Assembly: GCA_965178125.1 (NCBI GenBank)
Contig: OZ237749.1
Location: forward strand, 1,054,001 to 1,118,000
From: Bilabrum cf. latius
Lineage: Eukaryota
Reading direction: 5' to 3'
Length of the DNA stretch: 64,000 nt
The notes below the pieces were generated by a model that saw only the letters and a list, made by a program, of their open reading frames with translations, was not told the origin of the DNA and did no database searches. The translations under genes and the position numbers were made by a program. Below, one piece after another: positions 744 to 64,000 of this stretch. Each line of letters begins with the position of its first letter. The first letter of the stretch is position 1.

Positions 744-3700
744 TCAGTGCCACCATCGAGATATCTCGCTCCCACTGTCCTTGCCATCATATCCCATTAG
801 CTTTGGCTCTCCGTCATGGATCTCCAGAGCCACCGCCCACACGTCGTCATGGTCCCACAACGACTCACCATGCTTGTCAACGACGTGCAGCACCCCTCTC
901 ACGTCAAAGATCAGCGTGTACGGCCCCTCTCCCTCCCCGTACGTCCCGGTGTGCCAAACAGACTCCCCGTGCTTGTACAGCACCAGGTTGCCATCTCTCT
1001 GCATCTCCAGCCGCACACCGCTATCCACATGCGACCGAAGCGACTGGCCCTGGAGCAGCCGCTCACCGGGGAACATGGTTATGTGAACACCACCATGCTT
1101 CTTCGGCAGAACCTCCTCACAGTCCTAGTGGGCCTTCGGGTCGCACAACACGTCTCCTGGCTGGTAGTTGAGGCCGTCGAGGTCCGAGTTCCAGGTGCCG
1201 TAAAAATCCCAAGCCCCTATGCTGTTGAAGTTGTTCGTCCTGGTTGCCCAGATCCACTCCCCTGTGTGCCGGTACAGCACCACATTTCCATCAGACTACA
1301 CATCAAGCCTGTCAACAGGCCGTTTGGTGGAGCCCTCGATCCTCCACTTGACGTCCAGCTTGTTCTCGCCAAGGACCATGAGATCACCGTCCCCATCAAG
1401 AAGCAACGTGTGCGGCTGGTTCACCCCGTCGACGTGGTACTTGTCGCTGTCGTCGCTGCTGTCCCACAACGCCACGGTCTTGCGGTCACTAAATCCCCAC
1501 GGGTCGTAAGTCTCGTACAGAACGAGGTTGCCGTCGCTCTACATGCGCAGGTCCATGTCGTGCCAGTCACCGTCGTCGTCCGTGATGCCGTGCCTCCTGA
1601 GCGCGAACGGTGAGGCGATGCCCTGCCCCCTGCGTAGGTTGTCGTTCACGTCCTGCGATCGTATATCGCACTGCTCCATGTTGGTATTACTGCAGTCGTC
1701 TCGAGAGCGTGTACTGCTGGCACCGACACCAACTTGCAGCAGCGCGTCTGCCACCTAGTCCTGCTATGGACCAAACACCTTTCGCAAGGACTTCAGGGTC
1801 AGCTTCTTGGTGATCGTGTTCCTAGACTTGCGCAGCAACTTCATGCCCAGCTTTGACGCAAGGGTCTTGACCACGTCAATACCAGCCACCCGCTGCTTCT
1901 TAGCACGCTTGATGATTGACTTGAGAACATCTTCCTGGACGCCTCCAGCGTTTTTGAGCTGAGACACCAACTCTTGCTGCTGCTACTTCCCAAGACCCTC
2001 CCAGAGACCCAGAATCTCCCTATGCTTCGCAGCAGACTCCATGGCCAGCCTATCCGACTCCTTCACAATCTGCCCCCTCGACGCGCCACCAAACACAGCA
2101 ACATCCAGCAGTATGTCTGGGTCTGCTTTAGCCTCGTTGGCAACATCGATCACGGCGTCGACATAATCGACATCCACCATACGCCTATCGATGTCTACGA
2201 TTTCCAGTGCTTTTGCCCAAGCCAGGCTGTCCGCCGCGTCGTCAACGCTGCACCCCTTGCTCGCCATGGCCATGAGACTGTGGTGCGTGCCAACGTCCTG
2301 CAGAGCAACGAGCTTCGTGTAAGCTGCAAGATCGTCTGCAGCATCCATGGCCAGCAAACGCATTGGCTACAGCTCCTTGCTAGTCGCTACAACGGCCAGC
2401 ACATTCCCCTGAGGCGCGGCGAAGCCGCACGCTGCTGCCAGCTGGTACTGCCGGACGGCTTCCCGGGATTCTTGCATGGTCGCGCCAAAGTTCTTCAGCA
2501 TGATGTCGTCCACCACTGCAGCATCCAGACCCTGGTCCACAAGCTCCTGTCCGTACTTGAGCAGTGCATCCTGCTACCGGAACACGGCACCGACCTGCGT
2601 GAGGTCAAGGGCCGCTTGTCTGACGCGGTCTTCGCTGACAGCGAGCGCCTCTGCAGCGCCCTTCCACTCATTCGATGCATCAAGGTGCTAGAATGCACTC
2701 TTGTCCGCCTGAAGCACCTTGTCGTACTCTTCAGCCAAGTGACTCATATCAATGGTAGCACCGTCGGGACCAGTGATCGAGCTAGGCAGTGGCTGCATTT
2801 GCATCACGCCACCTTCCATGCTCTCCTTGAGCCAGGCTTCCCCTTGCAGTGGCGGTGCATGCTTCGGAGGGTTCAGAGCGTGAGGTGCATTGACGATGCT
2901 ATCTGCATCAGGGGCCTTGCCATCCTCCAGGTAGAGCTTGCCGTCTTGGCCGAGCACGTCGGTATTCTCGCCGTTTTCGACGAAGGTGTGCCTGTCTTCC
3001 AGGTCAAGATCCAAGGCGTCATCCACCTTACTATTCGAGTCATCCAGCACCAGCTTTGCAGTGCCGTCCTCGTCGATTTGCGTCTCAATTACGATGACAT
3101 CATCGCCGTCTCGCTAGGAGAGCCGCTTCTGAAGGTCCTCTACATGCCGGTCTGACAGCCCTCCCACGCTGCCCTTGGCGTTGGGATCCGTAGGTCCTAC
3201 TTCCATCAGCTCCTTGACACTGCTCTCGTCTAGCTGGAACTCCGGTGCTGGCACGGCGTCCTCAGCATCCACGCCAGGCTTCCTCCTGAGAGTTGCGGGG
3301 TCAGGCAGGGTACTCAACTCCTCGAGGTTGTCATACAGCTCTTCAATGTAGTCGATAGTACTATCGCCAGGCTCCAGGCCCATACGCTTGTACTCTCTCG
3401 CGAGATCTTCCGGTGATGCTTCGTCGTACAGCATCTGCCACTCCCTGCGCGCCTGTGGTATTGCGGCGTCCGCGGCATCTCTCGCCTAGCGAATCTGTGT
3501 CGGTGAAGCATCTGTGAGAAGCACATGCTTGCTGATGTACTCCAAGTCTGCGCCCATGGCATCTGCGGAATCCAGCAGCTCCACGGCGTGATTGAGACGG
3601 AAGGCTTCAGCCTCTTGCAAAGCCAGCCGCTTTCCCGTCTCGAAGACGGCGTCAGACTGGGTATCGACAACCTGGCGAAGACAGGCGGAATTCGCAAAGG

Positions 3701-6700
3701 GAAGGTACGTGGGATCAAGTACAAGTCGGGCATCTTGCAAACGCTTGGCCACGGCCGTCAACTCCCCAGTGTTGAACCGGTGCTTCAGGGATCCCACGAC
3801 ATCCTGCACGTCCCAGCACGCGACGGTCCATGGCATTTCCATCGCATTGAAATATACACCTAGCTGAGCCGCTGTGAACGTGTCGAGCTCCTTCTGCAGT
3901 TGTGCTGTAGACGTGCCGAACTGGACCTTGAGGAATGTGTCCTTGTCAATGCCTTTCGAGGCCGCCTCATCCGCGTACTTGGACATGTACACATACCTGT
4001 CACCCGTGGCCATGATGCGGTTCATGGAGGAAGCGAACGAGTGGGTGATTTCTGGATCCATCCCTTCCTAAAAAGAGCGACTGTCGATCTTGGCCTACAA
4101 CTTGCGGTTGGCCTTCAACATCTCGTCGTATTCGTCAGCCAGGTGGCTCAAGTCCAGCACAATCTCCTCCCCGGCGTCATTCACGACCTGGTATTCCCTC
4201 GGCAGCGACTGCAGGTCTGCGATCTGGAAAGATCTCTGGTCGACGGGCGCCCTTTGCATCTTGACCTTTTGGGAGTTCACCGAGCGCATGGCACCCCTTC
4301 GCTTAGGCCCCGTGGTTGCAAGGCCATCCGAGCCTGCGTAACCCTCCACAATGGTGGGCTCCCCGTGCTTGATCGTGGAAGTGCCCTCGGCTAGCATTTC
4401 GTCATTTAGCCGCCCCGAGGCCATCTCATCAGCAACCTTGCTCCTGAAGGCCATCTCGCTCAAGAACTCACCATCCTCTACAGAGCCACCCATGTCCTTC
4501 CGCACCCTGTCCATGAGCACCTCCTGCATTTCATCCCACTCACCCACGTCGAATTGCACTGACTGCAGGAGTTCTTTGCGCTTTTGGGCTACCTTCGCCT
4601 CTACTTTCTTGAGCCGCTTGGCCACCGCAGCAGGGTCTGCCTCAACTCCAATGTACTTCAGCGCGATGGAGGGGTCTGCTCCCATGTCAGTGGCGCCGTC
4701 AACAAACACGCTCGCGGCGCTTAGCATGGTTGCTTCGTACTCCAGATCGGCGAGCTCAGAGGCGTGCTTGAAGGCAAGGTTATCAGCGGGCGGGTTGGAT
4801 GCTAGCGGGCTCTTGACCTACATGTACTTGAGGGTCATAGAGTGCGATACATCCACATCAATCCCGAGCGGGTTGATTGGCATGAAGAGGTCATCCAACC
4901 CCTCCCGGAAGGCATCGAATTTACCATTGGCATCAAGCTCCAGGCCTGCACTCCACTCGAATGGCTGGCCAGGCTTCCTCGGACTGCTACGCGTGTAGGT
5001 GCCGGGGCGCACAAAGATACTATCAACGTCCTTCTTGGGCACTCCCTGGATGGGTGATACCTACCACAGCATGGCCATTGCGTAGGCATCGTCCGCCTGC
5101 CGCGCCTGAGACAGAGTCATGCCCACGTGCTGCTTCAGAATTGCGTCCGCGTCTAGCCCTTGCGCCGCCAGAGCATCACCGTACTCGACAATGGCGTGCT
5201 GCCTCGCAAAGTTCGCATTCAGCTCAATGCTCTGCTTGGCCAGGTGCCGCTGCTCCTCAAGGGGCTAGGCACCGATCTTGCCGGTGGAGGGGAAGGTGGC
5301 CCCATCCATGGCCTCATAGTACTTCTTGTTCATGGCAAGATCGCCATCCAGGTTATCTAGCAGCCTGCCGAGGTCGAGCTGTACCCCGTCAGGCGTCTTG
5401 ACCTTGCGGGGCAGAGAAGGCACCTAGAGATCTGTGATGGATGTCGTGGGAGGGGCAGATCCCACTTTGGCCTTGGGCACCGGCTTGGACTTGGCACCGA
5501 GCGGCCGCTACGGTACCCCTACCGCGTCAGGGTCGGGCTTGCTCTTGTACCCGGGCACGATTGCGTCATCAGCCGGGCGAGAGCTTCCACTACCGATGGT
5601 TTTGCTCTTCTTGTACGGCGCTACTCCGTCTACGACGTCGTCAAGTCCCTTCTGAAACAAATCGTCAATCTATTTGCTGGCGGCTGACTGACCAGGCGCC
5701 TTGAGCGGGGCATCAAGAGATCGAATCAGATGTGTTTTTATGGCCTGCTCCCCTGCTTGCTGCACCACATCTTTGATCACCCCCGTGCCGGCCTTCTAGG
5801 TGCTCTTCCGCAGCACCTTGGAAACTGCCTGCTTGCCGCCATAATGGGCGAGGATGCCTAAAGACTTTCCAAAGTTGGCCAGCTCCATCGGGGTTGCCGC
5901 GGCGTTCTTGAACACCACCCAAGGGGCCTTCACCACAAACTTGCCCACTTTCATGCCCCCCTTGACGGCCCCAATCACGGCAGTCTTGCAGACTCCCAGA
6001 ACTCCGAGCTATTTCGCCCGCGCAGGAGACTTCGCGAACACCTTGGCCAACTTTTTAGCCCCTACCTTGACGCCTACGGCCCCGTGCTTGAGACCTCTAG
6101 CCACCTTGATAGCCGCCGACTTCACACTCTTTGCCACGATTTTGATCATGGAACCGATGTCCTTGGCAGCACCTTTTGCCCCAGCACGCGCAACGTACCT
6201 GGCCAGCTGCACCGGAGACATGACGACTTTCGACGCCGTCTTGAGCGCGCTCTTCGCACCAGCCAACAAGGTGGCTTTTGCCATCTTTATGGCCGCCTTG
6301 GCTCCAAACTTGACCGTGTACTTTGCCACCGCGTACGACCCGCCCGTCAATAGAGACAGGACAACGTCGCCCACTAGCTCAGAGACAAACTGACTCAGGA
6401 ACTTGGACCACTGAAAGAAACTGTCCCCACTCGCAGGGTTGAAGCGAGTCCAGGCCGACCCGTACAGCGAGTAGTCGGAGAGCACCGCATGCGGCCACTC
6501 GTCGTCCTCTTCGTGCCACTCCGCCGTGTTGGTCCGAAACACGGGCTCCTGCCCTGCAGCGAAGAGCACTACATTACCATCCCACTGCAGGTGGAGTTTC
6601 CAGCGAGGGAAGCTGTGCGCAGGGGATGTCACAAGGAACACCTCCGCAGGGGAAGAAAATGCAGCCGTGATACCCCTGTCAAACACATCTGCAATCAGGG

Positions 6701-8777
6701 TTGTGGGCGACATGACCTTGTCCATTGCTCCCAGCTTGTCGGGAGTAACGAGAGTGTTGTAGAGCTGGAGGCTATCCACAAACCACAGGATCTGTCCGCC
6801 CCCATCCACGATTGCCAACTCGGCCATAGACGTCATCACGAGGGCGTATGGGCCCTTCTGCTTAGCCCTACGCTCTTTGATTTCATCTGTGTCATCCTCG
6901 TGAGAATACGATTTGTACGTGAAGCTACTCCACACGGCCTTATTCCTACCAAGGTACAGGACCAGATTGCCGTCGGTCTACATGGTTAGCCGACCCAGCG
7001 GCACCTCGAGCGACTTGCCCTCCCTCAGGATCTAGCCCGAATGCATCGATTCAGAGCCCTCGGGCACATCCTCGCACTGGTCAAGCTGCTGCACGGTACA
7101 CGTGGGGCTGAACGGATTGTCTGTGCGCGCCCTGAACCTGATGAGCCTCTGCCCATGCTTGCCCAGTGGATTCGTAACAGAATCACCGGGGACTGTCACC
7201 GTGCTCCAAACCATGTGCGGATCTGCCATGGTGGCCTGCACGGCAGCTGCTTCAGTGCATGGGTCCCTCGGGTGCCTCGTGTCTGCGCGGTACACGTTGA
7301 AGTTCACCTGGGAGTCCTCCCAGTCGCCGTCGTTCGGCCTCCGCTTGACTCCCACAACGGTAGCGCATGTGATAGGTCCCGCGTCTCCCGTATCCTCACG
7401 CCAAGTTACAGCTCCATCCCCATCGATGAGGGTCAGATCGCCCGCAGACGTCAAGACAAGGGCGTAAGGGCCATTCCTGTCGCTCTCGTCTGTCACTGAC
7501 GTTTCGGTGGACCAAAGGGGGCGATATGGATGCTACTCCAGCTCCTTGGCAAGGTCTCGGTCCTGGTTATCCCTGCATTTGCACACGACCCCGGGGGTGG
7601 CGCAGTTGTAGGCGCCTCCTTTGATCTCCATCTTGCTAGAGTAAAACTTGTCCTCGTCCTCGTCATACCACGCCGAGCAAGAAGTCTCCCGCATATAGAG
7701 CATCAGGTTGCCATCCGACTGCACCGTAAGCTTCGTGTCAACGACGTTGAGGTACGGTACCCCACTGCGGGTGGGTATCTCAAAATCGGCTGCAAAGTCA
7801 AGCACTACGTTGAGGCCTTTGCGGAGGCCCTGCAGGAAATTCCCATCCACCGTCATGGTGGTGATGACCCTCCGCAAGGAGTGGCCCTGCGTAATCAGCT
7901 GCCCGGGACGGAGGGATGATGCAGAATCCCCCACGTCTTCGCACACCGTGACATCCCCCTCACCGCAGAAGCCCATGCCGTCTTGGCGCATCAGGTCCAC
8001 CATCCAGTGCGTGCTCCAAAAATCCTGACTGTAGCCGCGGCGCAGCTTGGTGTAGCGCTCCCACCCGTTCATATCTTCAAGGCTCTACCAGCCAAAGTCC
8101 ATGAGCAGATCTGCCCACTCGGACTTGATCTCAGTGCGCGTTTCCCAGATGACGCGGTGCTGCTAGTCCTGGATCTCAAGGTTGCCCCGCTTTGTGATGT
8201 GAAGCCTCTTGATACGGCCCGCCGCAGAGGCGGAGCGAGACCATATCTCCTGCAACTGACCGGCTTCTTTTGCGGCAGCGAGTGCCTGAAGGACGTTGTC
8301 GTCGTCATGGCCGTGCACCGCTGCCCGAAGAATCACGAGGTCCCCCTCCGACGTTAACATCAGCGCAAACTGGCCATGACCCCCGTCCTGATTGGAGTTC
8401 GAGCTCCATATTGGACTGTTCATCCCATCGAAATGCTCGAAAAGCTCCAGGTTGCCGTTCCCTTGGACGCACAGTTTGGCAAAGACTCCGTGAGCATCCC
8501 GAATGTGGGATTGCAAACAGCCAGACTGTTTGAGCACCTCACCAGGCAAAAGATCGCTGCTTTCGCCATTACTCTTCGCCTCCTTGCATCCAGATAGATC
8601 CTCTGAATCGCAATGCGAAGCCGAGGCGATGTGCCGATTCCGTCTGGCTCTTTGCCCTAAGCGTCCACTTCTGGCATCCAGCGAGAGAAACTCCTTCAGA
8701 TTCGCCGCATCCACCATGTAGAGCATCACAATTGAAATTGCAATGTAGCTCGAAACTTGTCCTAGGCGGCCTGACAT
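744..8777 (-). CDS. Giant secreted bulb-type (B-)lectin domain protein, copy 1 (~2677 aa with TAG=Gln, no introns needed)
   Basis: All long minus-strand ORF pieces from 8163-8786 to 744-1076 share one frame. The gaps hold only TAG (26 counted), no TAA or TGA. ATG 8777 opens a signal-peptide-like MSGRLGQVSSYIAISIVMLYMVDA, and the frame ends at TGA 744-746. Lectin motifs: QSDGNLMLY, *TDGNLVLY, QWDGNVVLF (N-terminal) and *SDGNLVLY, *SDGNVVLY, QRDGNLVLY (C-terminal). Confidence 0.88.
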
Positions 8778-9066
8778 CCTTCGCAACCGAAATCTGCAGA
8801 TCGAATGGCTCGGTTGTCCGAAAGGTAGACTTTTAGGGATGTTTTAAAACCGTGATAAACGTGAACTTGTTTGGATATTACAGGCTATGCTTTTTGAGCT
8901 CTGTTTCGGTTGAGGCCGGGGTGTACTACTTCTCACAAGAAGAGCTTGGTATGGCCGCGGCGCCGGCGGCGGCCTGATTTCTTTACAAAATTAAACTACA
9001 CGAGAAGGGAAGATCAATGCTAGAAAAATCGATCACCGATTCACTAAACCATTCTTTTGGCTACAC

Positions 9067-9340: not shown

Positions 9341-11513
9341 CAGGCCTGTACAACTTATAAAGTATGATATTAGTAGCTCCAAGGGCCGAAATCAGCGTAT
9401 AAGTGGCATTTTCAAACTTGATTTGCAGGGTAACCCGGAGGTTTCGTGAGTAAATAATAGTAGAAATTCAATATTTAATAGATGAAATATTGTCTTGTGC
9501 GGTGCTTGCCCCGCAATATGGCGTGGAAGTCTCGAGAGTGAACTCCACGTAGGCGTGCTCCCGAGCCGCGCTCCCGTCACGTGCCTGGGCCCAAACGCTC
9601 TGTCACAGGCATCGTGTGCGGCATCGAAGGCCCCCAAGTGCTTCAATTAAGAATAATTGAATCATTTCTGTCCCCCGATTTGTCTTGACTTGTATTGGTG
9701 CAGCAAAATCTAGTATCCTCCAGCGCCAGTTGGAATTCGGCGGCCGTTCATTTACACCGATGTGGGAGATGGTTACGCCACAGAAGAGACTCCAATATCA
9801 TTATATCGCCGTTTGTGTGCTCAGTCGTGTCACTCTCGACACGTTCGGGCTTGGCTACGGCTGGGACAGCTGATGGCTTCCGTGCCCGTGTCTACAGCTC
9901 AGGTGGAAGGGACGGTTGCACGGATTGGAAACGCTCTCGAAATGAAAGGAGCAGTATGCCATTGCACATGATTACACATGAGTGCGTGCAGAAGGCTAAT
10001 GAGCGACTAAAGCTAGCAATCCTCGCCGTAGCCGACCATGGCGAGAGCTCACTTACGCGAAGGCATACATCGCCTAGACCTTCAAGGCGATGTACAGCAG
10101 CACGATGAAGGCCGCGGTTACACACCCAAATGGTGATGATGCAAAGGGGTGCGACAGGGATGATGAGAGCAGCGACTCCGATTAGAATGAGCTTGTTCTC
10201 GGCGGCGGTCGCCCGTAACAAAGTATGTCTCTCGACACTGTGTCAAAGATAACTGGATCTGCTGATCAAGGTAACTCGGTACGAGCCTTAGGAAGCAGTA
10301 GTGTGCCTCTAGGTAGAGCTTGTCTTTCTCCGGCCACTTTCAAGCTTGGGAACAAGCGCTCCCGCCGAAATCTACACCTTTTTGTGACCTCGGACTTGGT
10401 GATGGCAGCTGTCTACAGATTCCGGGGACGAATACGAAAACGCCGCAGCGGGGTTCAGGAAGAGCTGTGTCGACGATGAGAATGCCGACCTGTGCGTGGG
10501 TGAGGCCGAGCCACCATCATTAGATGACAACCTGAATGGGGAACGACTGGGTGAGGGAGGCTGAGGTCGTGGGCTGGTCACAGCGCTTAGGCGAGTCGAC
10601 AAGTCGTGTGGCATGATTGAGGTGAACGAACGGGGGGTGGATGGAATGGAGGAAAGGTGGACGGGGTGGACGGGGTGGATGAAGCATGGGGCACAGACAG
10701 GGCATGAATGTAAGAAGGGACGGTGGGGACCGGAGGGGTTCCGGATTAGGATGGGGGGTAGGAGAGGATACAATCTCCCCATCCAGATGCCGTCATCGGA
10801 AGGATCGGCAGTCACAGATAAGTCGGACGCGGTGCCACAGCCATTGGCGACAAGAGAGCGAGATGGAGGACTCTGAACTGCTGTACACAAAGGCGTGATG
10901 CAGAGGTGGTTACTCTCGCGCCAGAGCCGGGTCGGGTGCGTCTACAGGATGGAACGATGGTGAGACCAACGAGTCTGGCTCAGTTCCTTGAGCTCCATGC
11001 CCGGAACGGAACGTGGGAAGACACGATCCACGTCGATGCGCTCGCAACGGTAAAGGAGGGGTATTGGTCTACAAGACGGTCCGATCGTTCAGAGACGTAC
11101 CTGTTGGGTCTAAGGAGGTCGGCGTCGAGTACGATGGAGGTAGCTACACGTCTATTCCTGGGCGCAATTCCAGAGTGCGTGAGATGGCACGCTACATGCG
11201 AGATCGACTGGCATTCAGGGGCTGTCGGTAAGACAGGTGGCGTGGTGGAGAACGTCGGCCAGGAGTCACCAGGTCGGCCTCTAAGGCGGCCACAGTGCAT
11301 ATATTTTTGCAATTGAATGCTAGAATCCAAAGGATACAGGTGGGCAAACACTATAGTGTACATAGAACAAGGTTTTAGTCACTGTAGAGCCAGGGAACAG
11401 TGTCCAAAGATATAAGTGTCCGCAGAGGCCAAAAACAGTACATAGGATGCCTTTATAAGTTTCCTACTAATATGTTCGAACTCTGTTTTGACCACATAAG
11501 GTGTACAGGCCTG
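9341..11513. mobile_element. hAT-type DNA transposon, probably non-autonomous (2173 bp)
   Basis: 18-bp TIRs CAGGCCTGTACA(A/C)CTTAT at 9341-9358 and 11496-11513 (1 mismatch). 8-bp TSD ACCATCTC at 9333-9340 and 11514-11521. The flanks are contiguous at the empty paralogous site near 22680 (ACCATCAC). No recognisable transposase. Confidence 0.88.
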
Positions 11514-11759
11514 ACCATCTCGCCCCCCACCTCCCTCGTCTTTCCCACCCATCAGAACCGCCGCTCCTGGTCGTGCCTCGCTGGACTTGCTCCACGACCG
11601 CTCACTACCCCCCTTCGCTGCGTCGCACATGCTCCTGCACCTCGAGCGGGTACTGCGCCCAACGCAAGACCTCAATCTCAAAGACCTCGATGGCCTCACC
11701 AGCAAAAAAGAAAGAGCTTGCAAGAACACATCACCCTCGAATCCCACCCACATAGCCGA

Positions 11760-39155: not shown

Positions 39156-39186
<31 letters not shown>

Positions 39187-39881: not shown

Positions 39882-40019
39882 CGTTAATAACTGTTTATGC
39901 GGTACCAGACAGGTTCGTATGGGCCTTCTGCTGCGAATAATTCGAGTATGCTCCTCGAAAGCGGTTGCAACCGCATAATTGCCATCATGGTGCATGAGAG
40001 GCAATTTCAGTCCCACAGC

Positions 40020-42135: not shown

Positions 42136-42651
42136 CATGATGACGATTCAATTGGCAGCGCATATCTCACGCGCGCATTCGTCAGCACCATGGTCCGAAG
42201 ATGAAGACAAACTCCGGCCGATCCGACCTCCTCCCAACGTGTACAACTTGCGAGCCCTTGCCGCAAGTTTCGCGAGCGTACGGCTATCATGGCCGCTGCC
42301 AAACAGACGTCTACAAGTGTGAGGTATCCGCAACATGTCGCGTCCCTGATGGGCTGCGCAGCCACCGTGGGTTTTTTTGCAACACTCTGACCAACACCAA
42401 GAGCATCGCAGCGGCTTCATCTACGGTTTGGAGAGACTGGAGAGCAGCTATTTGCCGGTAAATATTACGACTGCAGCGTAACGCTGTGTGAATCTCATTT
42501 GAGCGATGCCAATACAGTGCCTGGGTGAGTCTCAAACGGTTGCCACTAGTAGCTCGCGTATCTTGGGTTGGTATTCACCACGCGCAAGATCACGCCAGAT
42601 TGTTCCAGTTTTTGTATCGTTCGTAGTGTACCTGTCCGTGTTCGGATAGGC

Positions 42652-45534: not shown

Positions 45535-45752
45535 AATACCAGGAGCAAAATGATAAAGCCTTACCCTAATTTCAGTGCATGTTGGGCTGAAGCGCTTCAA
45601 AACAGCGACTTGGTACGGCTCTGTGGAGATTAAAGGTAGATCTATGCGAGTGCATTGAAGAGCACATTTCATTATTAGTGGGATCCTCTTGGGGCACAAT
45701 GCAGTACAATTCAATGAAACTACATCATGGGATCAGCGGCTGGAGCACCAGC

Positions 45753-49314
<3,562 letters not shown>

Positions 49315-52500: not shown

Positions 52501-55500
52501 GCGGGCTGTGCACCTCACTGGCGTCACCAGCGTCTCCCATGCGCCGCCTGTTCTCTTGTGCCTCTGCACCTACCCCTGCCTCTGCCCCAATGAATGTAAC
52601 CCCGCTTCCCTCCCCCGACTCTTCCTCCCAAGCCGCCTTACCACCCACCCACCCAGCTGCATTCCCAGAGGCCTGCCGCACCGCCACTGCTGCCAGCCCG
52701 CCGCCAGCACGAACCCCCACAGGCGTTCGAATACCTGCGCGTGGATCTGGCAGCCTCATCGCGCCATGCGATGATGACCCGCGCTCTCCCTCTCCCTCTC
52801 CCTCTCCCTCTCCCCCCTGTATCTGCGGCCGGCTCTCATGCAGCGAGCCTCTCGCCCCGGGCCCGCGGACCCCCCTGCTGCCACGCCCAGTGGTCGTCAG
52901 CGGCATGCCCACGCCGGGCCCTGCCAGCCCCCGGCCACTGCCGCTCCGCAGCACGCCCCTCAGCGCGCCCCCGTGCCTCGCCGGCCCGTGCCCCTGCACA
53001 GCGAGCGGAGTGCCCCAGCGCACGCCCACCCCGATCGAGCCTCCCGCGGGCTCTGCCGACCCGCCGGTCACCATTCCTCCGGTCCCAGTTGAGGCAGGCA
53101 GCATGCCGCTGCCCTCCCACCCCTCACCGCCCTCTCGCTTGGGACTCAGGCCCGACCCGGTTGCCAGCAGCTGCACGGACCCAGCCGTCAGTGACTCAAC
53201 ACCCCCTGGCAGCAGTGAGGGGGATGACCCGCCGGACACCATCGGCTGGGCCCCCCTGCGGCGACCCCCCCTTGACCCCCCCGCCGACCCCCCCGCCGGC
53301 CCCGAGGTGCCCCGCTGCACCACGTCCCGGTCGATGCTGGTGGCACGCCGCCTGCCCCCCTGCGCCACCCCCGAGCTAGACCTGCGGCTGGCAAGGGACT
53401 GGGGACCCCGCAGTGGGGACGTGGGAGGAGCCCCGCGCGAGGAGGGGGAAGGGAAGGACCCCGGCGCCGAGCCCTGGTGTCCCCTGTGCGCCGGCCCCTC
53501 CTGCCCCGGCAACAGCAGCCCGCCCTCTCCGAAGCCCCCCTTGCTTCTCGAGGAACCGTTCGAGTCCGAGGAGGTGCTCTTCACATCTCGCGGGCCCGTG
53601 CCTGCTGAAGCGCCCGAGCTCTCGCGCACGCGCTCAACGGACACCACAAAGGCAGGACGACCCATCGCCGAGACGTCCCTGGGGGCCGCACCCACGCCCG
53701 GCCCAACGGCAGCGCTGTCCACGTGCACACCCCCGGGTAGATCGGTCGCGCTCGGCTGGGTCCCCGACCCGCCCCGCCCCTCCGCAGTTCCCCTCGACCG
53801 AGAGCCCCACTGCGGCGTGCCCCCCGACCCGCTAGACCCGCTGGCTTGGTGCCCCCTCGATTCTCGGTGAGACCCGCCCCCGCTGCCGGCCCCTCCGCTG
53901 TGGTCGGAGCCGCGCTCCGCAGAGCCCCAGGCGTGCCCCGTGGTCTGCACCCCGCCCGACTGCAGCAGGAACCCACTGCCCGCGCCCCCGTCGCTCGCAC
54001 CCGCTGGCCCCGGCGCTATGCTCCCAGGGCTCATCATGCCCACCCCGGAGCTGGCCCCGCGAGTGGGCCCCGGGTCCTCCTCCGCCGACCCGCCCTGCAT
54101 GCTCCTCTTGTCCTGGCTGTGCATGCGGCCCTTGCCCAGGGAGCCAGAGGCCCCCCTCCCTGTTCCCCGCATGGACCGCGAGTAGCCCGAGGCGACCGAC
54201 TCGGCGGCCAAAGACATGACACCGATGGTGGAGTTGCGGTCAATCAGCCGCCCGTCGCTGGCCTCGTGTGACCCGGACACCTGCCCCGGGCGCAAGCGGT
54301 GGACGGAGGAACCCCCGCTCTGCCCCCGGCCCCTGCTCCGTGGGCCGGGGAGGTCCGTCGTGTCGGTGACTCGACGGCGGAGCTCCCGAATGCCCGGCGG
54401 CCCGTGGGAGGACGAGTCCACGCCTCCGCGACTGCTATCCACAGAGGAGCCGGCCGTGCCACGGCGGCCCGCGGAATGGTCATGCGGCCTACCCCTCTGC
54501 AGCTGTGGCTGGGGCTGGGGCTGGTGGCGCAGGCGAGCGCTCTCCCTGCTCTCGTGTCTGCCCACCCTGCCGCTGCTGCGCTCGCTCTGTCCATCAGACT
54601 CCATGCCCCCGCCCTGCCCCTGCTCGGCCAGCGCTCTGACCCTCTCTGCATGGGCCAGCGCGGGGCCGTACGGGGGCAGCGAGGCCCGGGCCCGGGCGTG
54701 GGCGTGGGCGGCACCTGCCCCTGCCCCTGCCCCTGCCCCTGCCCCTGCCCACGCCCTGCCCGACATCTGCTGCAGGTGCACGTGCGACCCAGTGGCCACC
54801 TGGCTGCGGCGGCTCGAACTCTCTCGCCTATTGCCGCTGCCAGTAGGCGCGAGGACACCTGAATCCCCCCGCCCTACCTCCCCGCTCTCCCCTTCTCCCT
54901 CGCCCATGGTCTCGCCCGCCGTGCCATCCCCGGGCTCCATGCCCATGCCCATGCCCACGCCGTGCGACTCCATCTCGACCTCGATCTCTCTCGCGCGGTC
55001 CTCCTCGGCGAAGTAGTCCTGTTCCATGGGCCCGTGCTCCCTGGTTCGGTAGTTGTACTCTAGGAAGTGCACCTGGTCCTGGTCGCTGATGGCCTCGGCG
55101 CTGTCCGTCTGGTGCTCGGGGTCGTTGAGCAGCATGTCGGCCATGTTCTTGTCCTGCACGGGGTGGCTGTTGAGCTTGGCCGTGTTGATCTTCATGGCCA
55201 CGGGTGTCTCCCTCCTCCTGAGAGCCTCGAAGTCCACGTCCTGGAACCACGGGTGCTCGTAGATCTCCCACACCCCGCGCGAGCCGAGCCGATACTTGCG
55301 GTTGCATATCAGCATCTTCTGCACGAAGTCCACCGCCTCTTTGCTGCTGGTCTCCATGTGCCTCGAGTAGACAAACTCTTCCGCCCTGTCCTTGTCCGCT
55401 CGCCGCTCCTGCGCCGAGATGAGCACCCGCCTGGCCTGGTCCATGCTCAGCCGGCGGTCCCTCGGGGGGACGAACATGGACATCTTCACCAGACGCTTCA

Positions 55501-57287
55501 TGTTGTGCTTCGAGGGGCGGTACGGCCTGTGTCCTACGAGCATCTGGTGCGTGGTTATGCCCAAGGCGTAGTAGTCCGCCATGTGGTCGTGCCTGTGCCC
55601 CTGCATGAAAATCTCGGGGGCCATGTACGGGCTGCGGGGAGAGAACAAGGGGGCGACCGAGCAAGCAAGCGAGAAATGGGGGCAGGATAATGTATTCGGG
55701 TATGCTACGCGGCTAATCGCCCGAGCAACGTCAGCCGCGAATCAGCATTGGGAGCGCCCTCGGCAGCATGAGCCGGCTCCAAGCAGGCAGGAACACTGGC
55801 TCCATGCCGAGGGACGGACTCGCTCCAATAGGCTTCTGGCGCGGGAATGGCGATTATGTGAGTGTGTCTTGCTCTTGGGACGGTCTATCGGCGCTCCATG
55901 CCGGGGCCCCGTCAGCACAGTCGCCTCGGCATCGAGCTGACCCACCAATGGACCTGACCGCATCTCGAGGGGAGCGGTCGCTCACGGACCGCCGAGCCGC
56001 AGCGACCGCGCCGACAAACCTTAACCAAGGATTACCGCCGGTTTGACACCTGTCTTTCCGTAGTCATACTGCCTTGTCAAGAAACCGATGCCACGGCATT
56101 GACCAGAATGCGGAATGTACTCCAGATCGCACCTCGGGCGAGCGAAGCATTGCCGGCAGGGCGGAAGTCCTCAGTCAGAACCAAACGCGAGCCAAAACAT
56201 CAAATGCAAACAATCGCTACTCCTACTAGGACCCTGTCTCACCGTGTTCCAGAGGTGTTGCGGCATTCGCCATTGTCATCCATAGCGACCGAAATCCCCA
56301 AATCCGTCACCTTTATGTACCCATCCTCGTCCAGAAGTATGTTCTCTGGCTTGACATCCCGGTGAAGTACTCGCTGCCGATGCATATAATCGAGGCAGAG
56401 CAGGATCGAAGCTGCATACTATTTGGCCTAAGCCTCCTGAAACATCCGATCCGTCGTCTACGTCAGCTGGTAGTGCAAATCTCCGCCCAGGCAAGCGTCC
56501 ATGACCAAATAAAGATACTTGTCATCCTAAAATGCGTAGTGCATGTTCACAAGCTGAGGGCAGCGAAGCCTGCGATAGGGAAGGGCACGACGCAAGCCGG
56601 CGGAATTCTTGAGGTCGGTTCTCTGTGCTACAGCTTGCGGCCACTAAGATCAGTGGGGGCACACCAGCAGCATTTATGCATATTCTTCCGATGCGCTGTC
56701 TTGCGCAGCTAACAAAACGTGCCACGCGCGCCGCACTGGCAGCTCAGTGGTGTTGGAGGTACGAGAGGCCTCTCACCGTTCCAGCAGCTGTCTTTCGTTC
56801 GACACCATCTCTACGTGTTTCCTATTTATCACAGTATGTTTCTTGATGCTCTTCATGGCGTACAGCCGGTTGGCATCCGTCCCGGTTTGCTTCCGTACGC
56901 ACGTAACCTTGCCAAATCCTCCCTGCAATGACTTGTGCTTGGTTTGCCGCAAGGTTCACGGGATGTGGGACGCGTGCGAAAATCAAACTAGTCTACTGCA
57001 AAGCTATGCAGGCCTCCGCCGTGTCTAGCGCAGCATCTACCGCTGCAGGCTGGGCAGGCTAGGCAGGCAAACCTGCAGAATTGCAAGGTAGGGCTACTCA
57101 CTTGTCCGACCACGCGTTCGATTGTGAAATGTTCCTTTGAAACATGATGCAGATCTGCGATATGTGGCAGGAAGCCGCATGAGCAGAAGAAAAGGGTCCA
57201 AGCGGCGGTGCACCCTGTGGCATCCGGCGGTGGCAGCTGAGGCAGCGACTTACCCGGCTGTAGAGCACTCGACGAACCGCAGCCCAT
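49502..57287 (-). CDS. AGC-group Ser/Thr kinase with MGCGSS acylation motif and very long disordered tail (~2229 aa with TAG=Gln)
   Basis: Exons 57287-57254, 57154-57102, 56922-56777, 56569-56243 and 55631-49502 (6690 nt, divisible by 3). Motifs [49 protein letters not shown]. The tail continues across four TAGs to TGA 49502. Confidence 0.88.
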
Positions 57288-57501
57288 CAGCTATAGTCAA
57301 AAGGTAAACCAGCACAACTCCACGAGAATTTATGAAGCTGCACTCTTTTTATAGTAGGTTGCTTTTTTGACAGAGTCTCACCCCAAGCCGTTGTGCCCGC
57401 CGGATCCGCAAAATGCACTGCACTGTGAAGATCTACCTCGACCAGTTTGGCGCAGCCTAGCTCTACTCAACTCGGTAGAACAAAATTGAAATGGACTTAT
57501 A

Positions 57502-58962
57502 ATGTTTCCATCATCCTTTCAAAGGATGGGAAGTTCCTTCTGTATCGGGATAACTCGCCGGTACGCCACGAGGCTGATGAGTACCAGGACGCTGAGCCGC
57601 GTATCTGTCGAGGCATTGTACAAATATCGCTCCAACGATGTATCCAAGTGTATGAAGCAGGCAATGGGAGACTGGTGAGCCGTTCCGTTCAGGTTCGAGT
57701 TGGGCGTTCCGTGCAACTGCGTTCTATCTCATATGTGGCTAATACTGAATCACTGGCCGTCAACACGCCGCAGGCCACTAGACACGTATGTGCCCCACCT
57801 TGACAAAGATTGGATCTTGTTCTAGATACCCACCAAATGGTACGTGGAGTCATGCGGGGGATCGCTGGCCGGTGACGAGCCGGTTCATGACAGCGTCTGG
57901 GCGTGCGCCTCTCGTCGAGGCGCCGTCGTGGTGATCAACTCGCGGCCAGCAGGGCTGCCGGCGTCAGTATCACCGTGGGAGCACCCAGTGTTTTCGCTGA
58001 CGCAGCTGCTCGACGCGGCTGGGTCGCCCTCTCTCCCGCAGGGTGCAGTGCCGGCCAGGGAAGAGCTCCCTCTGTTGGTGGGCCCCAGCTCAGGCCCCGG
58101 CCCGTCTGCTGCCACTGCTAGTGAGCCCAGGTGGTGCGAGAGACTGCCTGGTGGACTCGGCGGTGGGAATTCGCGCATGCCCGTGGAGGGCAACGGCAGC
58201 GCTGACAGTATGGGTGCTGGTGCGGGTGCAGGACATGCAGGTGCAGGTGCGGCCCCTGTGCTCCGACTGGGCTCGCTTGAGGCGGATGCGGTGCGCGTGA
58301 TCAGCTCATGCCTGGCGCAGAGCGTCAATCTGCAGTACTTCGAGGGGCGGGTGGATCGCATGTAGGGGCAGGGGACGGGGATGGGCGTTGGGCCTGGGCT
58401 GGGGGCAGGCAGCGCGGGCCTGAGCATGGGGAAGGGGCAGGGGCAGCAGGGGCAGTACGCCGAGGCAGGGGATGCGGGTGGGGACAGAGCCAGCCTGTCG
58501 GCTTCGATTCTGAGGGAGGGTGGGCTGCTGGCACGGGCGAGGAAGTGGGTGGGGGAGGCCCTCGAGGCGGGGGGCGGGGGCGGGTCGGCTGCGGTGTATC
58601 GGCAGCTGGGGGCAGCGAATGAGATCGCGAGCCACGTGCTGCTGAGTGGGCTCCGCAACACCGTGCGGCCGGGGTCTACTGCGTGGAAAGACGAGCGGTT
58701 CAGCACGCTGCAGGAGCTGCTGTGGGAGGACCAGGACCTGGAGGAGAGATACGAGGAGCTGGAGAGGAGGCTCTCCTTCGTGACCGAGGGCGCCAAGTAC
58801 GAGCTGGAGGTGGGCAAGGACGCGAAGAGCATCTTCCTGGAGAGAGTCATCGTGGCGCTCATCGCGGCCGAGCTGGTGCTCTCGTCGGTGAGCGCGGGGC
58901 TGCCCGGGCAGGCGATGGACTTCGCAAGGGGTTTGCTAGAGGGGGGCGGCGGCGGGGGCTGA
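57502..58962 (+). CDS. DUF155 / RMND1-Rmd1-like protein, probably mitochondrial (~453 aa)
   Basis: Exons 57502-57674 and 57774-58962 (intron GTGAGC..GCTAAT..CGCAG). ISSCLAQSVNLQYFE, DLEERYEELERRL, LERVIVALIAAEL. Internal TAG at 57823 and 58363. Ends TGA-TAA. Confidence 0.75.
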
Positions 58963-59060
58963 TAATGGACTTCGCAAGGGGTTTGCTAGAGGGGGGCGGC
59001 GGTGGGGGCTGATAATGGACTTCGCAAGGGGTTTGCTAGAGGGGGGCGGCGGCGGGGGCT
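58915..59060 (+). repeat. 50-bp tandem repeat (~2.9 copies) spanning the stop codon
   Basis: ATGGACTTCGCAAGGGGTTTGCTAGAGGGGGGCGGCGGCGGGGGCTGATA starts at 58915, 58965 and 59015. Confidence 0.92.
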
Positions 59061-59270
59061 TATCGGTGGGGGTTGATGCAGGTTGACTGAAGGATACGCC
59101 TTAGGAGTATACTTGCTGTGTACAATGTCTGTACCTCTGTTCAAAAAATGCACCTTCCCTCCCACTCTCCCTCCCACTCACCCGTCTGGTGGTGGCCAAC
59201 GCGCGGCCCCCTCACGAGGCTCTTCACCTAAGTTGATACCTCGTGCTGTTCACTGCTGCATTGGCGCCTT

Positions 59271-60125
59271 TCACAGGACACTCCTGCCTCCACCGCGAGC
59301 AGTCTACATCGCATAGGCTGCTGCCCCCACTGCCTCCCCAGACAGATGCGAGGCCGAGCCTACAGGCATGAAGCCGAGCACCGCGTTAGCCAAGTCAAGC
59401 AGCACCAGGCCGAGCAGGGCACGGCTGGCTGGAAGACTAAGGACGAAGGCAACCTGCACTCGTGCATTTGGTTGGGACAAAATCGAATACGCAACAGTCG
59501 AGGCAACAGCTCCCGATGCACCCAACGATTGCACGTCGTTGCCGAACCGCGCTGCGGCGGGAAGTTGTGGCCGCAGAAGCACGTCGTACGCGACAAATGC
59601 AATCGACGACAACACAGTTGCCACTGCATACATGATCGTAAATCTTTGGGTACCGAGACTTAGTATGCAAGTTGGGGCAAAACTCAGCAGCGCCGCCATA
59701 TTCATTCCAAGATGTATCAAGCTGGAATGCGAAAATGCACTCGTGACCAGCGTGTGAAGTTTTCCTTCGTTCAAAACTCCGGCAGAAGATAGCATGAAGT
59801 GATTTATCATAAACCCCTCCCGTTCTGCGGAGGCCCAAGCAAGATATACTGCAATGTTTGTACCAAGAATCGCCAGCAGCACGAGACCGCCTGATCGATC
59901 GGGCTTCCTCGGGTTCACCCTACGACGGCGACCTCGAAGCGATAATCGATAAGGACTATTCGCTTTGAACAAGCCGGACAGTCCTCTCGGCTTCGACAGC
60001 TGCAGTCGGACTGGACCTTGGTGGCAGCAATTAAAGCTTAATCTTGCTCGCGCTCCAAATAGTTTCAGTGGGGACGGGAATCGCTACCGAGAGCATAGGC
60101 TTGACAATTTACGAACTGCATTCAT
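59271..60125 (-). CDS. Rhomboid protease, PARL/Pcp1-like (~284 aa with TAG=Gln)
   Basis: TLVTSAFSH..HLGMNM, catalytic GASG and HLSG. Arg/Ser/Leu-rich presequence from ATG 60125. TAG at 60084 and 59304, TGA at 59271. Confidence 0.85.
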
Positions 60126-60335
60126 AGGAGAAACTATTCACCAATGAATGGCGGGCTAATGTGACTTTCGCTGTGTGTAGCATTCCCGCTCCGGGTACCG
60201 GTATACTTCGGAAAGTTTTGCTCGTAACGGAGGAGGTAGAGAGCCATTGCAGGAGCAGCCGGTAAATCTTGCATTTTATTTAGTTTGGAAGCGCTCCTCT
60301 GTCGTTTGAACAAATTTGGTTGCGGTTTGATGCAG

Positions 60336-61029
60336 ATCCGACCACCGAGAACGCCAACAGGTCATCTGGAACGCGGTTTTTTTCGCAGTCGAATCAGGCG
60401 CAAACGCAGGATCCAGGCTGTCAGTTGTAACGGCTGATGGCACGCGGGATACGTTCTTTGTATCCAGCGATGTATAGTTGGAACATTTGAAGGACGAGGT
60501 ATCAACGAAGCGGCCTGTCTTCGTACCTGAACTGATGAAAATCTCCGGATGGGAAGACAGAGACGACCCAATCGCGAACGGTGCCCTGGATGACCTAGAC
60601 TGGACCAAGCACAAGGTTGTTGTGGCGGTCGGGTGCAGCATCGTCTCGGCAGAGGACAAGGATGGGACGCTGAGCGTGGAGCTGAAGTCTGCCACTTCGG
60701 GTCGCGATCGCCAGTACGAGGCTCTAGTGGTGGCGACAGAAGCGAGCGAATCCGCCAGTATTGCCCCGTGGGCAGCAGCTGCTGATGCTGCCGCTGATGC
60801 CAGTAGTGCTGTTGCTGATGGTGGTGATGGTGGTGTTGACAGGGAAGAGGGTGATAGCGAGAAAGAACAAGAAGAGGACGATGATGATGACTCGAATAAT
60901 GATGGAGAGGAACAGGGGGAGGAGGAGGAGGGTGATGACTCTTGTGGGCTCTAGCCGCCATCGGAGGAAGCGAACAAGGCGATGCAAGCACTGGTCCAGC
61001 GCATGTCCAAGAGAAGGACACTCAAGTGA
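60336..61029 (+). CDS. Unknown protein, paralogue A (probable last exon, 5' end unresolved), acidic tail
   Basis: Open frame after a TGCAG acceptor at 60335, through TAG 60475 and 60952 to TGA 61027. Homologous to 61480-62064. Confidence 0.5.
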
Positions 61030-61479
61030 CTGTGAGCACCGGTGCTGCCACTACCAGAGGTTGGGTGTGGATCGATGTCTACCTCGGAGACATGAGCCGC
61101 TAGAATGGTGTAAATGCAATGCACATATACGGATGCGCTGTTGAGCGGGTTCGCCGCCGGCGATTCCGGTTCCTCGGCGGCGCGAGCCTCGAGGTTCCGT
61201 TCGCCGACGGCGTTTTGCTTGATCGCCCCGGGTCACAAGTAGTTACTCACGATGGCGGGGGTACCTGGTAAGACCATCGCATTGATTCTAAGTCACTGAT
61301 CATATTTTGAAGCTTCCGAGTGTTGGTGCAAACTCAATGGTTGCGTTGTCTGGATCTGTAACACCCGAGAACGCACTGAACTTCCCCATTCATGCTCGGT
61401 CACAAATAGCCTACAAGTACGGATCCCGCAAGCCTTTATTTAAAACGCAGAAGAAGCGAAAGCAGGGGAGGGTTCGCGA

Positions 61480-62064
61480 ATGAACGGCGTCATGAAAGAC
61501 GGCACACAGGATAGATTCTACCTGCAAGGTGCAGATGACTTGAAGGATATTAAGGCAAACGTCTCGGTCTAGAAACCGGTCTTTGTGAGAGGAGTGAAGA
61601 AAATCTCCGGATGGGAAGACAGAGACGACCCAATCGCGAACGGTGCCCTGGATGACCTAGACTGGACCAAGCACAAGGTTGTTGTGGCGGTCGGGTGCAG
61701 CATCGTCTCGGCAGAGGACAAGGATGGGACGCTGAGCGTGGAGCTGAAGTCTGCCACTTCGGGTCACGATCGCCAGTACGAGGCTCTAGTGGTGGCGACA
61801 GAGGCGAGCGAGTGCAGCTGGGAGGGCGGCGAGCGCGGGTTCGGTGGTGCTGTGATGCAGAGGCCCATCGAGCAGCGGCCGCTGGACATGGGTCCCATGA
61901 TGATCGAGCAGCGGCCGCTAGACCCAGGCCCCATGATGCTCGAGCAGCGGCCGGCAGAGCCAGGGCCCCTAATGATGGAGCAGCGGCCGGCAGACGATGC
62001 CCCATTCGAGCTCGAAGGAGAGTCCGGCCCTGTTGCCGGGGACAAAGGGGATTCGGAGCTCTGA
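61480..62064 (+). CDS. Unknown protein, paralogue B, with 12-aa EQRPxxxGPxMx repeats
   Basis: Frame from ATG 61480 through TAG 61570 to TGA 62062. 36-bp repeats at ~61870-61995. Start uncertain. Confidence 0.5.
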
Positions 62065-62252: not shown

Positions 62253-64000
62253 TCACAGGGCTGTTTCGTGCACCACCTTGATGGAATCGATCTGCTTGCT
62301 TCGCTCCTGCTCAGCTCCCCGCAGCAGAGGCCCCTCCCGCACCACCACGAGCTACACCGCCGAGTGCCTGAGCCCCGGCAGCCTCCTCTTGACCAGCGAG
62401 TGCCAGGGGGGCCCGTCATGAGCGAGGCACCTCTGCATGTCCCGGTGCGACCGCATCGGGTCCAGGAGCAGCAGGAGAGCCTCCAGATCAGGGCCAGGGC
62501 CAGAGCCAGAACCACCGCTGGAGCCTCGGGCGCTCCGCTTCCCAGCATGCGGGGCGGGGTGCGAACAGTCGCGGATTCCAACTGGATCTGTCAGGGACCC
62601 AGTTCCAGCAGACGGGGCATGAGTAGGTGCAGATGCAGGGGCAGACGGTCGGGCTGCCGAATCCAGATCACTCGGTGGGACTGCCCCCCTTCCCGCCCAC
62701 TTGTCCAGCGTGCTGGCGCTTGGACGAGGCACACGAAGAGACTAGCCAGGGCCGGGTCCACTGCCTGCTCCATCCCGTGCCCCCGCCCCTGACCCCACGC
62801 TACCGGGTCGGATGATGCACGGCGTGTTGCTCGTCAGTCGCCGCAGGGCACGAAGCGATCCCGAGCCCTTGAGGCGGCAGCGCGCCTGCACCCCGATTGC
62901 GGTGCGGCTGTGGCCATCGTGCTGCAAGTACACCGGGAGCGTCCTCTGCTGCTGCAGAACAGGGCCGGCATGGGCAAGCCCCACTGGCACAGGCGCCTCC
63001 AGCTGGCTGGCAGGCACGCTCTCCAGCACTTCGACCTCGCTATCGCTATCGCTATCGCTGCTGCTACTAATGCTGCCCACTTGGCCTGCCTTAGAATCAT
63101 CCAATGATCCGTCTTCGGCATCACTCGTCACATCCACCACTGGCACATGAGCGCGACTGGACGTCGGACTGCCGCTGGATGCCACCCTCGGGGAACACAG
63201 ATCGATCACGACTCCCCTGCTCTCCTCGTCCGCTGGGACCTCCCCTGGCCTAGACCTACCGCTCTCTGCACCGGCCGAGGCACCATCTGTTCCCCGGACT
63301 ATTTTCTCCCCATAACCACGGTCCCTACCACTGCTGCTGCCAGTGGCATGGCACCGCCACCCGCCAAAGTACCCCCAGAGCAGGTCGAGCAAGTGCTCCA
63401 TCGGGTCCCTCGCAGGGCTCGCCCTCCCGCGAGCCATCCCCCCACCGGCCCCCTTCACCTTCATCTTCATCTTCGCTGGCCGCGCCCTTCCGAACCCTCT
63501 GAGCTGCCGTAGCCCCTCCTTCCAGTCCACCAGCTCAGCGCCTGCCTTCCTCGCGCCTGCGATGCTGTACCCCCCACTCGCACTGGCACCGGGTGAGGAA
63601 GAGGAGGAGGAGGACGAGGAGGAGGAGGACGAAGAGGCTGAAGGTTCGGCTGCATGCACGTCCACCACCACCGCGTCGATCCTAAAGGACCGCAAGAGTG
63701 CTGCTACATCAGTAGCCCCGATCCATGCGGCGTGGCCCCGCTTGCCCCGCAAAGAGCCGCCGAAGTGCGAGGCGCCCTCTTTATCGTAGCCGAGCGACCA
63801 GGCTCGCTCAATCCAGCCCTGCAAGCCGAGCAAAGTTGGTACCCTGCCACTTCCATCAAAAAGGGTATTGCGGTACATAGGTTCTTGCATCATAGCAGAG
63901 CAGATGATCTGTACGTTTCTGTACCCGCAGGCCCACGCAGCTGACGATGCGTCGGACCTTTGAGTAAAGTGGCTGGTGCAAGGCTTTGCCAGCACGAAGG
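62253..64000 (-). CDS. Peptidase C78 family, ZUP1/Mug105-like deubiquitinase (5' end outside window)
   Basis: WACGYRNVQ (catalytic Cys), IERAWSLGYD, WIGATDV, YLQHDGHSRT. The LLLLDP motif is reached only by reading through TAG 62742. A further TAG lies at 62352 and the frame ends at TGA 62253. Confidence 0.82.

Follow-up and report, generated by a model that had tools for sequence, protein, structure and literature searches.

Does UAG specify glutamine in the nuclear genes of Bilabrum cf. latius, and has it parted from UAA and UGA in doing so? The question is raised by a stretch of 64,000 nucleotides (GenBank assembly GCA_965178125.1, contig OZ237749.1, positions 1,054,001 to 1,118,000 of the forward strand), in which gene after gene runs in one frame across TAG codons. 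Below, "the window" means this whole 64-kb stretch, and positions are counted from its first letter. The window is eukaryotic nuclear DNA of an intron-bearing, GC-rich protist, with 62.7% G+C overall and 54-73% across 4-kb steps. The comparisons reported here demonstrate that UAG is a sense codon, that it stands for glutamine, that UAA is absent from the coding frames and that UGA is a stop. We consider it probable that the whole follows NCBI genetic code table 15, that is, that cytoplasmic ribosomes read UAG as glutamine and use UGA as the usual stop, and that UAA is not sense and is most likely still a stop.

TAG in frame and the residue it specifies

Read with the standard code, the window falls into many medium-sized frames, of 1566 amino acids at most. 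Treating TAG, and no other stop, as sense yields a handful of very long frames, of up to 4540 amino acids. The 13,694 codons of 11 non-redundant frames contain 69 TAG, 0 TAA and 0 TGA, the frames being counted from stop to stop, with a few TAG upstream of the likely start methionine (e.g., codons 7 and 8 of the gene at 42529-45534). The remaining two frames of these stretches together contain 140 TAG, 62 TAA and 449 TGA. Thus, TAG is not depleted in frame (69 vs. 140 over two frames), whereas non-coding frames of this size would hold ~255 TAA and TGA together and none was seen, which marks these frames as coding far beyond chance.

The original prediction, made from the sequence alone, had counted same-frame fragments separated only by TAG in four genes. 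All four counts were reproduced: 26 TAG in the first copy of a giant lectin gene, 16 in a giant HECT ubiquitin ligase gene, 6 in a polymerase gene and 8 in a kinase gene (4 each in its last exon and its catalytic exon). The claimed lack of internal TAA and TGA holds over all 13,694 codons. The 14 gene models give the same tally of ends as before: 13 TGA, one TAA (45532-45534) and no TAG. One of the TGA stops (gene at 57679-58962) is directly followed by a TAA. The restriction of the TAG pattern to non-tubulin genes is also borne out, as both tubulin genes, which are both beta, lack TAG.

The last 1320 residues of an orthologue of the window HECT protein (22925-36547, minus strand) are encoded on L001, a metagenomic contig of a relative (12,421 bp, 55% G+C). 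This orthologue has 14 TAG in its own frame, and its TGA stop falls at the C-terminus shared with the window protein. The two orthologues are identical at 959 of 1309 aligned residues (73%). Over the 1309 aligned codons, the proportions of nonsynonymous (pN) and synonymous (pS) differences are 0.18 and 0.70, the synonymous distance dS is ~2, with synonymous sites close to saturation, and the ratio of nonsynonymous to synonymous distances (dN/dS) is 0.105. This ratio places both HECT genes under purifying selection, as functional genes rather than pseudogenes. TAG is present in one or both species at 22 columns: 16 of these have CAG or CAA opposite the TAG, one is TAG in both, and the remaining five have GGG, CGG, CAC, TCT and CTA; one more TAG of the window gene sits opposite a gap. 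Glutamine in 16 of 21 cases departs strongly from its frequency of 4.7% among the aligned codons (binomial P = 8e-18). Ordinary CAG and CAA codons are opposite glutamine in 70 of 121 cases in the same alignment, and set against this figure, the 16 of 22 at TAG columns indicate that TAG acts as a glutamine codon.

Similar evidence comes from conserved motifs. The two lectin copies carry repeats of a QxDGNxVLY-type motif, the general form of which we take to be QxDxNxVxY, the consensus sugar-binding motif of bulb lectins. Its first residue is TAG in three of seven repeats in copy 1 and in four of seven in copy 2, and CAG or CAA in the others. Between the two lectin paralogues, 23 columns are TAG in both, four are exchanges between CAG and TAG, two are TAG/AAG, and AGG/TAG and TAG/TGG occur once each. 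In the kinase, one TAG occupies the conserved glutamine of the AGC-kinase "AFQ" motif: "HYAFxDDKYLYL" (x = TAG) aligns with "YSFQDE" of STK32A (4fr4) and "YAFQTE" of RSK2; a second TAG is opposite Q in STK32A and K in RSK2, and two others are opposite T/D and L/F. A protein of a closer relative (P0157) has K/Q and Q opposite two TAG in a short GQ repeat of the window gene at 42529-45534. These results uphold the original assignment, with 16 of the 22 orthologue columns, glutamine sites in two motifs and four CAG-TAG exchanges between paralogues all in agreement, and on sequence comparison UAG almost certainly stands for glutamine.

UAA, UGA and competing explanations

TAA is found at none of 16,510 in-frame codons, that is, 13,694 in the window and 2,816 in four frames of L001. 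From the CAA/CAG ratio, 11.5 TAA would be expected in the window and 13.6 in L001 (probability of observing none, 1e-5 and 1e-6, respectively), and the AAA/AAG and GAA/GAG ratios lead to 8.5-18. The third positions of L001 are not strongly GC-biased (CAA/CAG 0.49, GAA/GAG 0.64), and since A-ending codons are common there, GC pressure does not explain the missing TAA. Despite a dS of ~2, no TAG column is opposite TAA in the HECT orthologues. When TAA is read as sense, the genes are extended by 2-63 codons that are dense in further TAA and TAG, and no gene becomes convincingly longer.

The only gene that ends in TAA is an orphan (42529-45534, plus strand). The G+C content at third positions is 0.74 within its frame vs. 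0.44 in the 62 codons past the TAA, where three further TAA or TAG occur within 61 codons, followed by a TGA. P0157 is a fragment of the orthologue of this gene, with 562 of 635 residues identical (89%). A comparison of the TAG-free C-terminal 313 residues with representative proteins gave one match, again P0157, which covers query residues 2-45. Taken together, it is very likely that UAA is no sense codon and, at a somewhat lower level of confidence, likely that it is an active terminator.

UGA is a true stop, since frames with conserved C-termini end there: in the HECT gene, the TGA comes 7 codons after the domain match stops, where homologous proteins also end, and the TGA stops of the beta-tubulin genes follow the acidic tail. 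Thirty codons upstream of the HECT stop, inside the catalytic sequence "HTCFFxIELP", a codon is TAG in both species, which indicates that UAG is read through even near the 3' end. The decoupling of UAG from UAA and UGA that was originally proposed therefore stands as far as the absence of in-frame TAA in two species and UGA stops at conserved C-termini are concerned, while for UAA as a terminator there is one orphan gene.

Several observations weigh against the table 15 reading. Termination at UAA is seen in that single orphan gene (1 of 18 gene ends), and the ends as a whole, 13 TGA and 1 TAA in the window and 4 TGA and no TAA in L001, would also fit a code in which TGA is the only stop. A single TAA (5549-5551, minus strand) separates two open reading frames (ORFs) of L001 that share a frame, the sole case of this kind in the DNA examined. 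No tRNA gene is present in the window or in L001, 76 kb together, so the mechanism is proposed by analogy, and a general family scan of the frames of both found no eRF1 among the families present. Part of this would be accommodated if UAG and UAA (together, UAR) both encoded glutamine, as in NCBI table 6, with TGA the sole stop and TAA too rare to appear in the sample. TGA is at 17 of the 18 gene ends, and in ulvophytes with UAR as glutamine only TGA is described as terminating and TAG is commoner than TAA (PMC2984419). We nevertheless consider a table 6 code unlikely: no TAA occurs in two species where 11.5 and 13.6 were expected, A-ending codons being frequent in one of them; TAG sites are never opposite TAA at a dS of ~2; and the coding composition is lost sharply past the TAA of the orphan gene. 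The TAA that splits the L001 ORFs sits in a candidate 96-nt intron (5511-5606, minus strand; GTGAGG...GCAG) of low G+C, whose ends resemble the GTGAG and CAG ends of the tubulin introns, and an in-frame intron would be its simplest reading. The identity of the residue is also open to objection. In an alignment with 12 distant giant-HECT homologues, glutamine is not enriched at the six TAG columns, with S in 6 of 12 at the "CFFxIELP" column and E in 7 of 12 at a "VxL" column; a likelihood test on flanking residues, which is indecisive, ranks glutamine fourth, after L, V and H. These points would suit serine (as in Scotinosphaera), leucine (as in the rhizarian exLh and some ciliates) or glutamate as the meaning of UAG. 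We set the distant alignment aside for residue identity because its TAG columns are variable rather than conserved, and regard another residue as extremely improbable: the 22 orthologue columns hold one Ser, one Leu and no Glu vs. 16 Gln, TAG stands at the glutamine of lectin and AGC-kinase motifs, and Ser is next to TAG in 7.4% of cases vs. 16.4% next to Ser codons.

The code might also depend on context, with UAG read as glutamine internally and as a stop near some mRNA 3' ends, comparable to what is known, for other codons, in Condylostoma, karyorelicts and Blastocrithidia. Only 18 gene ends were examined, so that occasional TAG stops may have been missed, and in both lectin genes an in-frame TAG follows the TGA stop. 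TAG is at none of these 18 ends, however, small as the sample is, and the TAG shared by both species 30 codons before the HECT stop lies in catalytic sequence that must be translated, which makes context dependence very unlikely. Finally, the TAG codons might not be translated as such, being lesions of pseudogenes, assembly errors or targets of U-to-C editing of the mRNA; the comparison is of DNA and to that extent leaves room for editing. Lesions or errors would produce TAA and TGA as well, and none is in frame; the dN/dS of 0.105 is between orthologues that each carry many TAG, mostly at different positions. Among the 24 sequencing runs listed, four from one organism contain 0.95-0.96 of the words sampled from a 9.2-kb stretch, and two other organisms contain 0.65 and 0.40. 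We therefore give lesions, errors and editing hardly any credence, and the table 15 reading, with UAG as glutamine and UAA probably retained as a stop, is the one pursued below.

Known codes, relatives and significance

By analogy with the reported UAG-only cases (PMC11687900, PMC5304391), a tRNA-Gln with anticodon CUA would pair with UAG and not with UAA, and eRF1 would not compete at UAG while still recognising UAA and UGA. UAG accounts for ~11% of the glutamine codons in the window and ~21% in the divergent relative that L001 represents, shares that imply an old, fixed change. At least three members of the lineage have been sampled: the organism of the window and the sources of P0157 and L001.

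The original prediction named the fornicate Iotanema and a few ciliates as carriers of a UAG-only change. This list proved incomplete: UAG alone is also described as Gln in Protocruzia and in two phyllopharyngean lineages, as Ser in Scotinosphaera and as Leu in a rhizarian (PMC11687900). In the account of Iotanema spirale (Fornicata), UAG is glutamine, UAA and UGA are stops, and UAA is the primary terminator (PMC5304391). The likeness to the window is close, as in both UAG alone has become glutamine and coding sequence is free of UAA, formally table 15; the difference is that UAA is the main stop in Iotanema, whereas here TGA is at 13 of 14 ends, in DNA of 62.7% G+C (PMC5304391). In Protocruzia tuzeti and two phyllopharyngean ciliate lineages, UAG is reported as glutamine with widespread sense use and UAA as a stop, so that codon, residue and retention of UAA are shared with the window; UAA makes up 86.9-98.3% of the stops in these ciliates, and their G+C content is 27.4-53.6% (PMC11687900). 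By comparison, the window has 62.7% G+C, TGA-dominated stops, GT-AG introns of 96-240 nt and a 64-kb multigene contig. UAG alone has been reassigned to other residues in Scotinosphaera (Ser) and in the rhizarian exLh and a ciliate lineage (Leu), according to the same sources (PMC11687900, PMC5304391). UAG is decoupled from UAA in Scotinosphaera and exLh as it is here; the difference lies in the residue, since in our comparison 16 of 22 columns are Gln, one is Ser and one is Leu.

UAR is glutamine (table 6) in many ciliates, in Dasycladales, Cladophorales and Trentepohliales, in hexamitin diplomonads, and in Streblomastix and Amoeboaphelidium. The window resembles this type in UAG as glutamine, TGA as the main stop and, as described for such a code in PMC2984419, TAG commoner than TAA. 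It differs in that TAA is sense in table 6, whereas here none of the 16,510 in-frame codons is TAA and one gene ends in it. Amoeboaphelidium was considered as the source of the DNA and ruled out, its genomes being given as 40.5% and 39.9% G+C (PMC10608142).

As to the organism, the claim of a GC-rich, intron-containing genome agrees with the 62.7% G+C and with the GT-AG introns of the tubulin genes. Among the 8000 candidate matches listed for the beta-tubulin exon, the best identities are 94% to Phytophthora, 94% and 93% to two further sequences and 93% to the chlorophyte Tetrabaena; identities to animals are 87-89%. The best solved chains are 7miz, 6u0h and 6u42 (825-814 bits, vs. ~790 for mammalian chains), which we take to be tubulins of Toxoplasma, Tetrahymena and Chlamydomonas. 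The sequence is of non-opisthokont type. Because it scores best against Phytophthora and these three presumably alveolate and green-algal chains, kinship with the metamonad Iotanema is unlikely. In a FastTree phylogeny restricted to matches with 340 or more aligned residues, the query and three JGI proteins form a group (support 0.80-0.91), which is nested with Phytophthora and an MMETSP1165 protein in a clade of 14 members (support 0.89). The taxa of this tree were set by the match list and include no ciliate or fungus, so the affinity to stramenopiles is a lead only. Thus, of the stramenopile-like placement first suggested, the position outside opisthokonts and near stramenopile and environmental sequences survives, and the stramenopile part itself depends on a weak tree.

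Other genes do not place the organism. The protein search with the HECT region gave 12 matches, the best with 42% identity over 28%, and Aphanomyces and Eimeria at 29-30%; none of the 12 is a full-length entry for the 4540-residue protein. The polymerase region gave six weak matches, including a fish and a fungus, and the Atlas clusters of the rhomboid core are labelled only "Eukaryota". No taxonomic placement followed from the HECT, polymerase and rhomboid comparisons or from a cluster look-up of eight proteins. Among genome contigs, the polymerase region had no match, and the rhomboid core matched only a bacterial rhomboid at 31% (L002). The comparison with viral contigs gave no match, and there is no Rfam match in the window, and so no rRNA.

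The type of code is already known as table 15. What is new is a further lineage that has it, with high G+C, TGA-dominated gene ends and at least three related organisms, two of which lie a dS of ~2 apart. The literature searched, mostly outside subscription journals and supplements, held no report of UAG as glutamine for GC-rich lineages outside the ciliates or for any stramenopile, and no change of the nuclear code in stramenopiles surfaced. A published description of this lineage may exist or be in preparation, the runs that contain the locus dating from 2025. We are evenly divided on whether the window represents an independent and unreported origin of UAG as glutamine with UAA as a stop, in a GC-rich lineage that is neither ciliate nor metamonad and is possibly stramenopile; it would then be the first case of this code to end its genes mainly in UGA.

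If this is true, reassignment of UAG alone does not need an AT-rich, UAA-leaning genome. The nuclear codes described as separating UAG from UAA are few (Iotanema, Protocruzia, some phyllopharyngeans, Scotinosphaera, one rhizarian and one further ciliate), and each independent case tests whether UAG alone is captured by a tRNA with anticodon CUA and whether eRF1 loses one UAR codon. A UGA-ending case at ~63% G+C would bear on whether base composition and stop usage prepare reassignment, although the G+C figures used for comparison are those of ciliates only. In practice, gene callers that use the standard code fragment these genes, and P0157, as it stands in a public protein collection, is such a fragment. 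Annotation of the lineage and of metagenomic contigs like L001 calls for table 15.

Genes of the window and of the related contig

A tandem segmental duplication of ~12.6 kb (within 744-21523) carries a whole lectin gene together with a decayed copy of ~1.2 kb from the 3' end of the adjacent HECT gene. Giant B-lectin copy 1 (744-8843, minus strand) has 2699 codons, 26 TAG and a TGA stop (PF01453 B_lectin, E = 3e-17), and its tandem paralogue, copy 2 (13361-21523, minus strand), has 2720 codons, 28 TAG and a TGA stop. The copies are identical at 2608 of 2699 aligned residues (96.6%), and the codons that differ do so synonymously in 91 cases and non-synonymously in another 91. The encoded protein (744-8843) has a signal-peptide-like segment at its N-terminus and bulb-lectin repeats at both ends, between which lie a Lys/Ala/Gly-rich stretch and internal repeats of ~450 residues. 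Between the lectin copies, the C-terminal HECT sequence is repeated in frames 11760-12488 and 12556-12996; this degenerate duplicate of the HECT 3' end (11760-12996, minus strand) is a pseudogene fragment with internal deletions that retains two TAG. The giant HECT ubiquitin ligase gene follows, with 4540 codons, 16 TAG and a TGA stop (PF00632, E = 1.5e-44). Next on the minus strand is a gene for a non-canonical poly(A) polymerase of TENT4-Cid1-like type (36705-40058; 1117 amino acids, 6 TAG, TGA stop; PF22600, PF01909 and PF03828). A low-complexity protein gene without family match (40243-42135, plus strand; 1 TAG, TGA stop) then precedes the orphan gene with the TAA end, which has 1001 amino acids and five TAG, three of them after the first methionine.

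The two beta-tubulin genes stand head to head, copy 2 at 45753-47440 (minus strand) and copy 1 at 47627-49314 (plus strand), both with TGA stops and with introns of the form GTGAG...CAG, ~100 and ~240 nt long. They are identical at 466 of 466 residues over the compared frame and at 1632 of 1688 nucleotides (96.7%), introns included. Glutamine in the main exon is encoded by 17 CAG, no CAA and no TAG. The spacer of the inverted pair (47441-47626) is AT-rich and ~190 bp long. The arrangement suggests a recent duplication or gene conversion, together with a shared bidirectional promoter. Long stop-free antisense frames lie over real genes, e.g., 486 amino acids at 45591-47051 (plus strand) opposite beta-tubulin copy 2, and 57885-59177 (minus strand) opposite a DUF155-like gene; they result from the high G+C, have no family match and are not to be read as genes.

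The AGC-type kinase gene is split into exons on the minus strand. Its last exon (49502-55741; 2079 amino acids, 4 TAG, TGA stop; PF00069) encodes the end of the kinase domain and a long low-complexity tail, and the catalytic exon (56239-56649; 4 TAG) has its best solved match in STK32A (4fr4_A, E = 8.5e-23); a fifth TAG at codon 2 of the latter frame is probably intronic. The frame at 56853-57296 (minus strand) is likely the first exon; it starts with MGCGSS, a possible N-acylation site, and ends at the start of kinase subdomain I. No exon was found between 56853-57296 and position 56649.

Farther along, part of a DUF155/RMND1-like gene (57679-58962, plus strand; 2 TAG, TGA stop) matches PF02582 weakly, with an E value of 2.5e-4 that is below the cut-off. 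A rhomboid protease gene (59271-60137, minus strand; PF01694, E = 2.5e-21) has two TAG and a TGA stop. Two tandem paralogues without a family (60331-62064, plus strand) follow, one at 60331-61029 with 2 TAG and the other at 61444-62064 with 1 TAG, both ending in TGA. They share a conserved core, ISGWEDRDDPIANGALDDLDWTKHKVVVAVG, and differ in their tails, one of which is acidic and the other Pro/Met-rich with repeats. The last gene encodes a C78 (UFSP-like) cysteine peptidase (62253-63998, minus strand; PF07910, E = 1.1e-22; 2 TAG, TGA stop), and its 5' end lies beyond the window.

Besides the HECT orthologue, L001 carries a DnaJ/TM2-like membrane protein gene (7049-8815, minus strand; 3 TAG), a gene for a FERM and triple-WW protein (9688-11364, plus strand; 7 TAG) and a fragment of a PfkB-type kinase gene (11364-12419, plus strand; 4 TAG), none of which is syntenic with the window downstream of HECT. 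The ORF upstream of the candidate L001 intron starts with MGCAGS, which resembles an acylation site.

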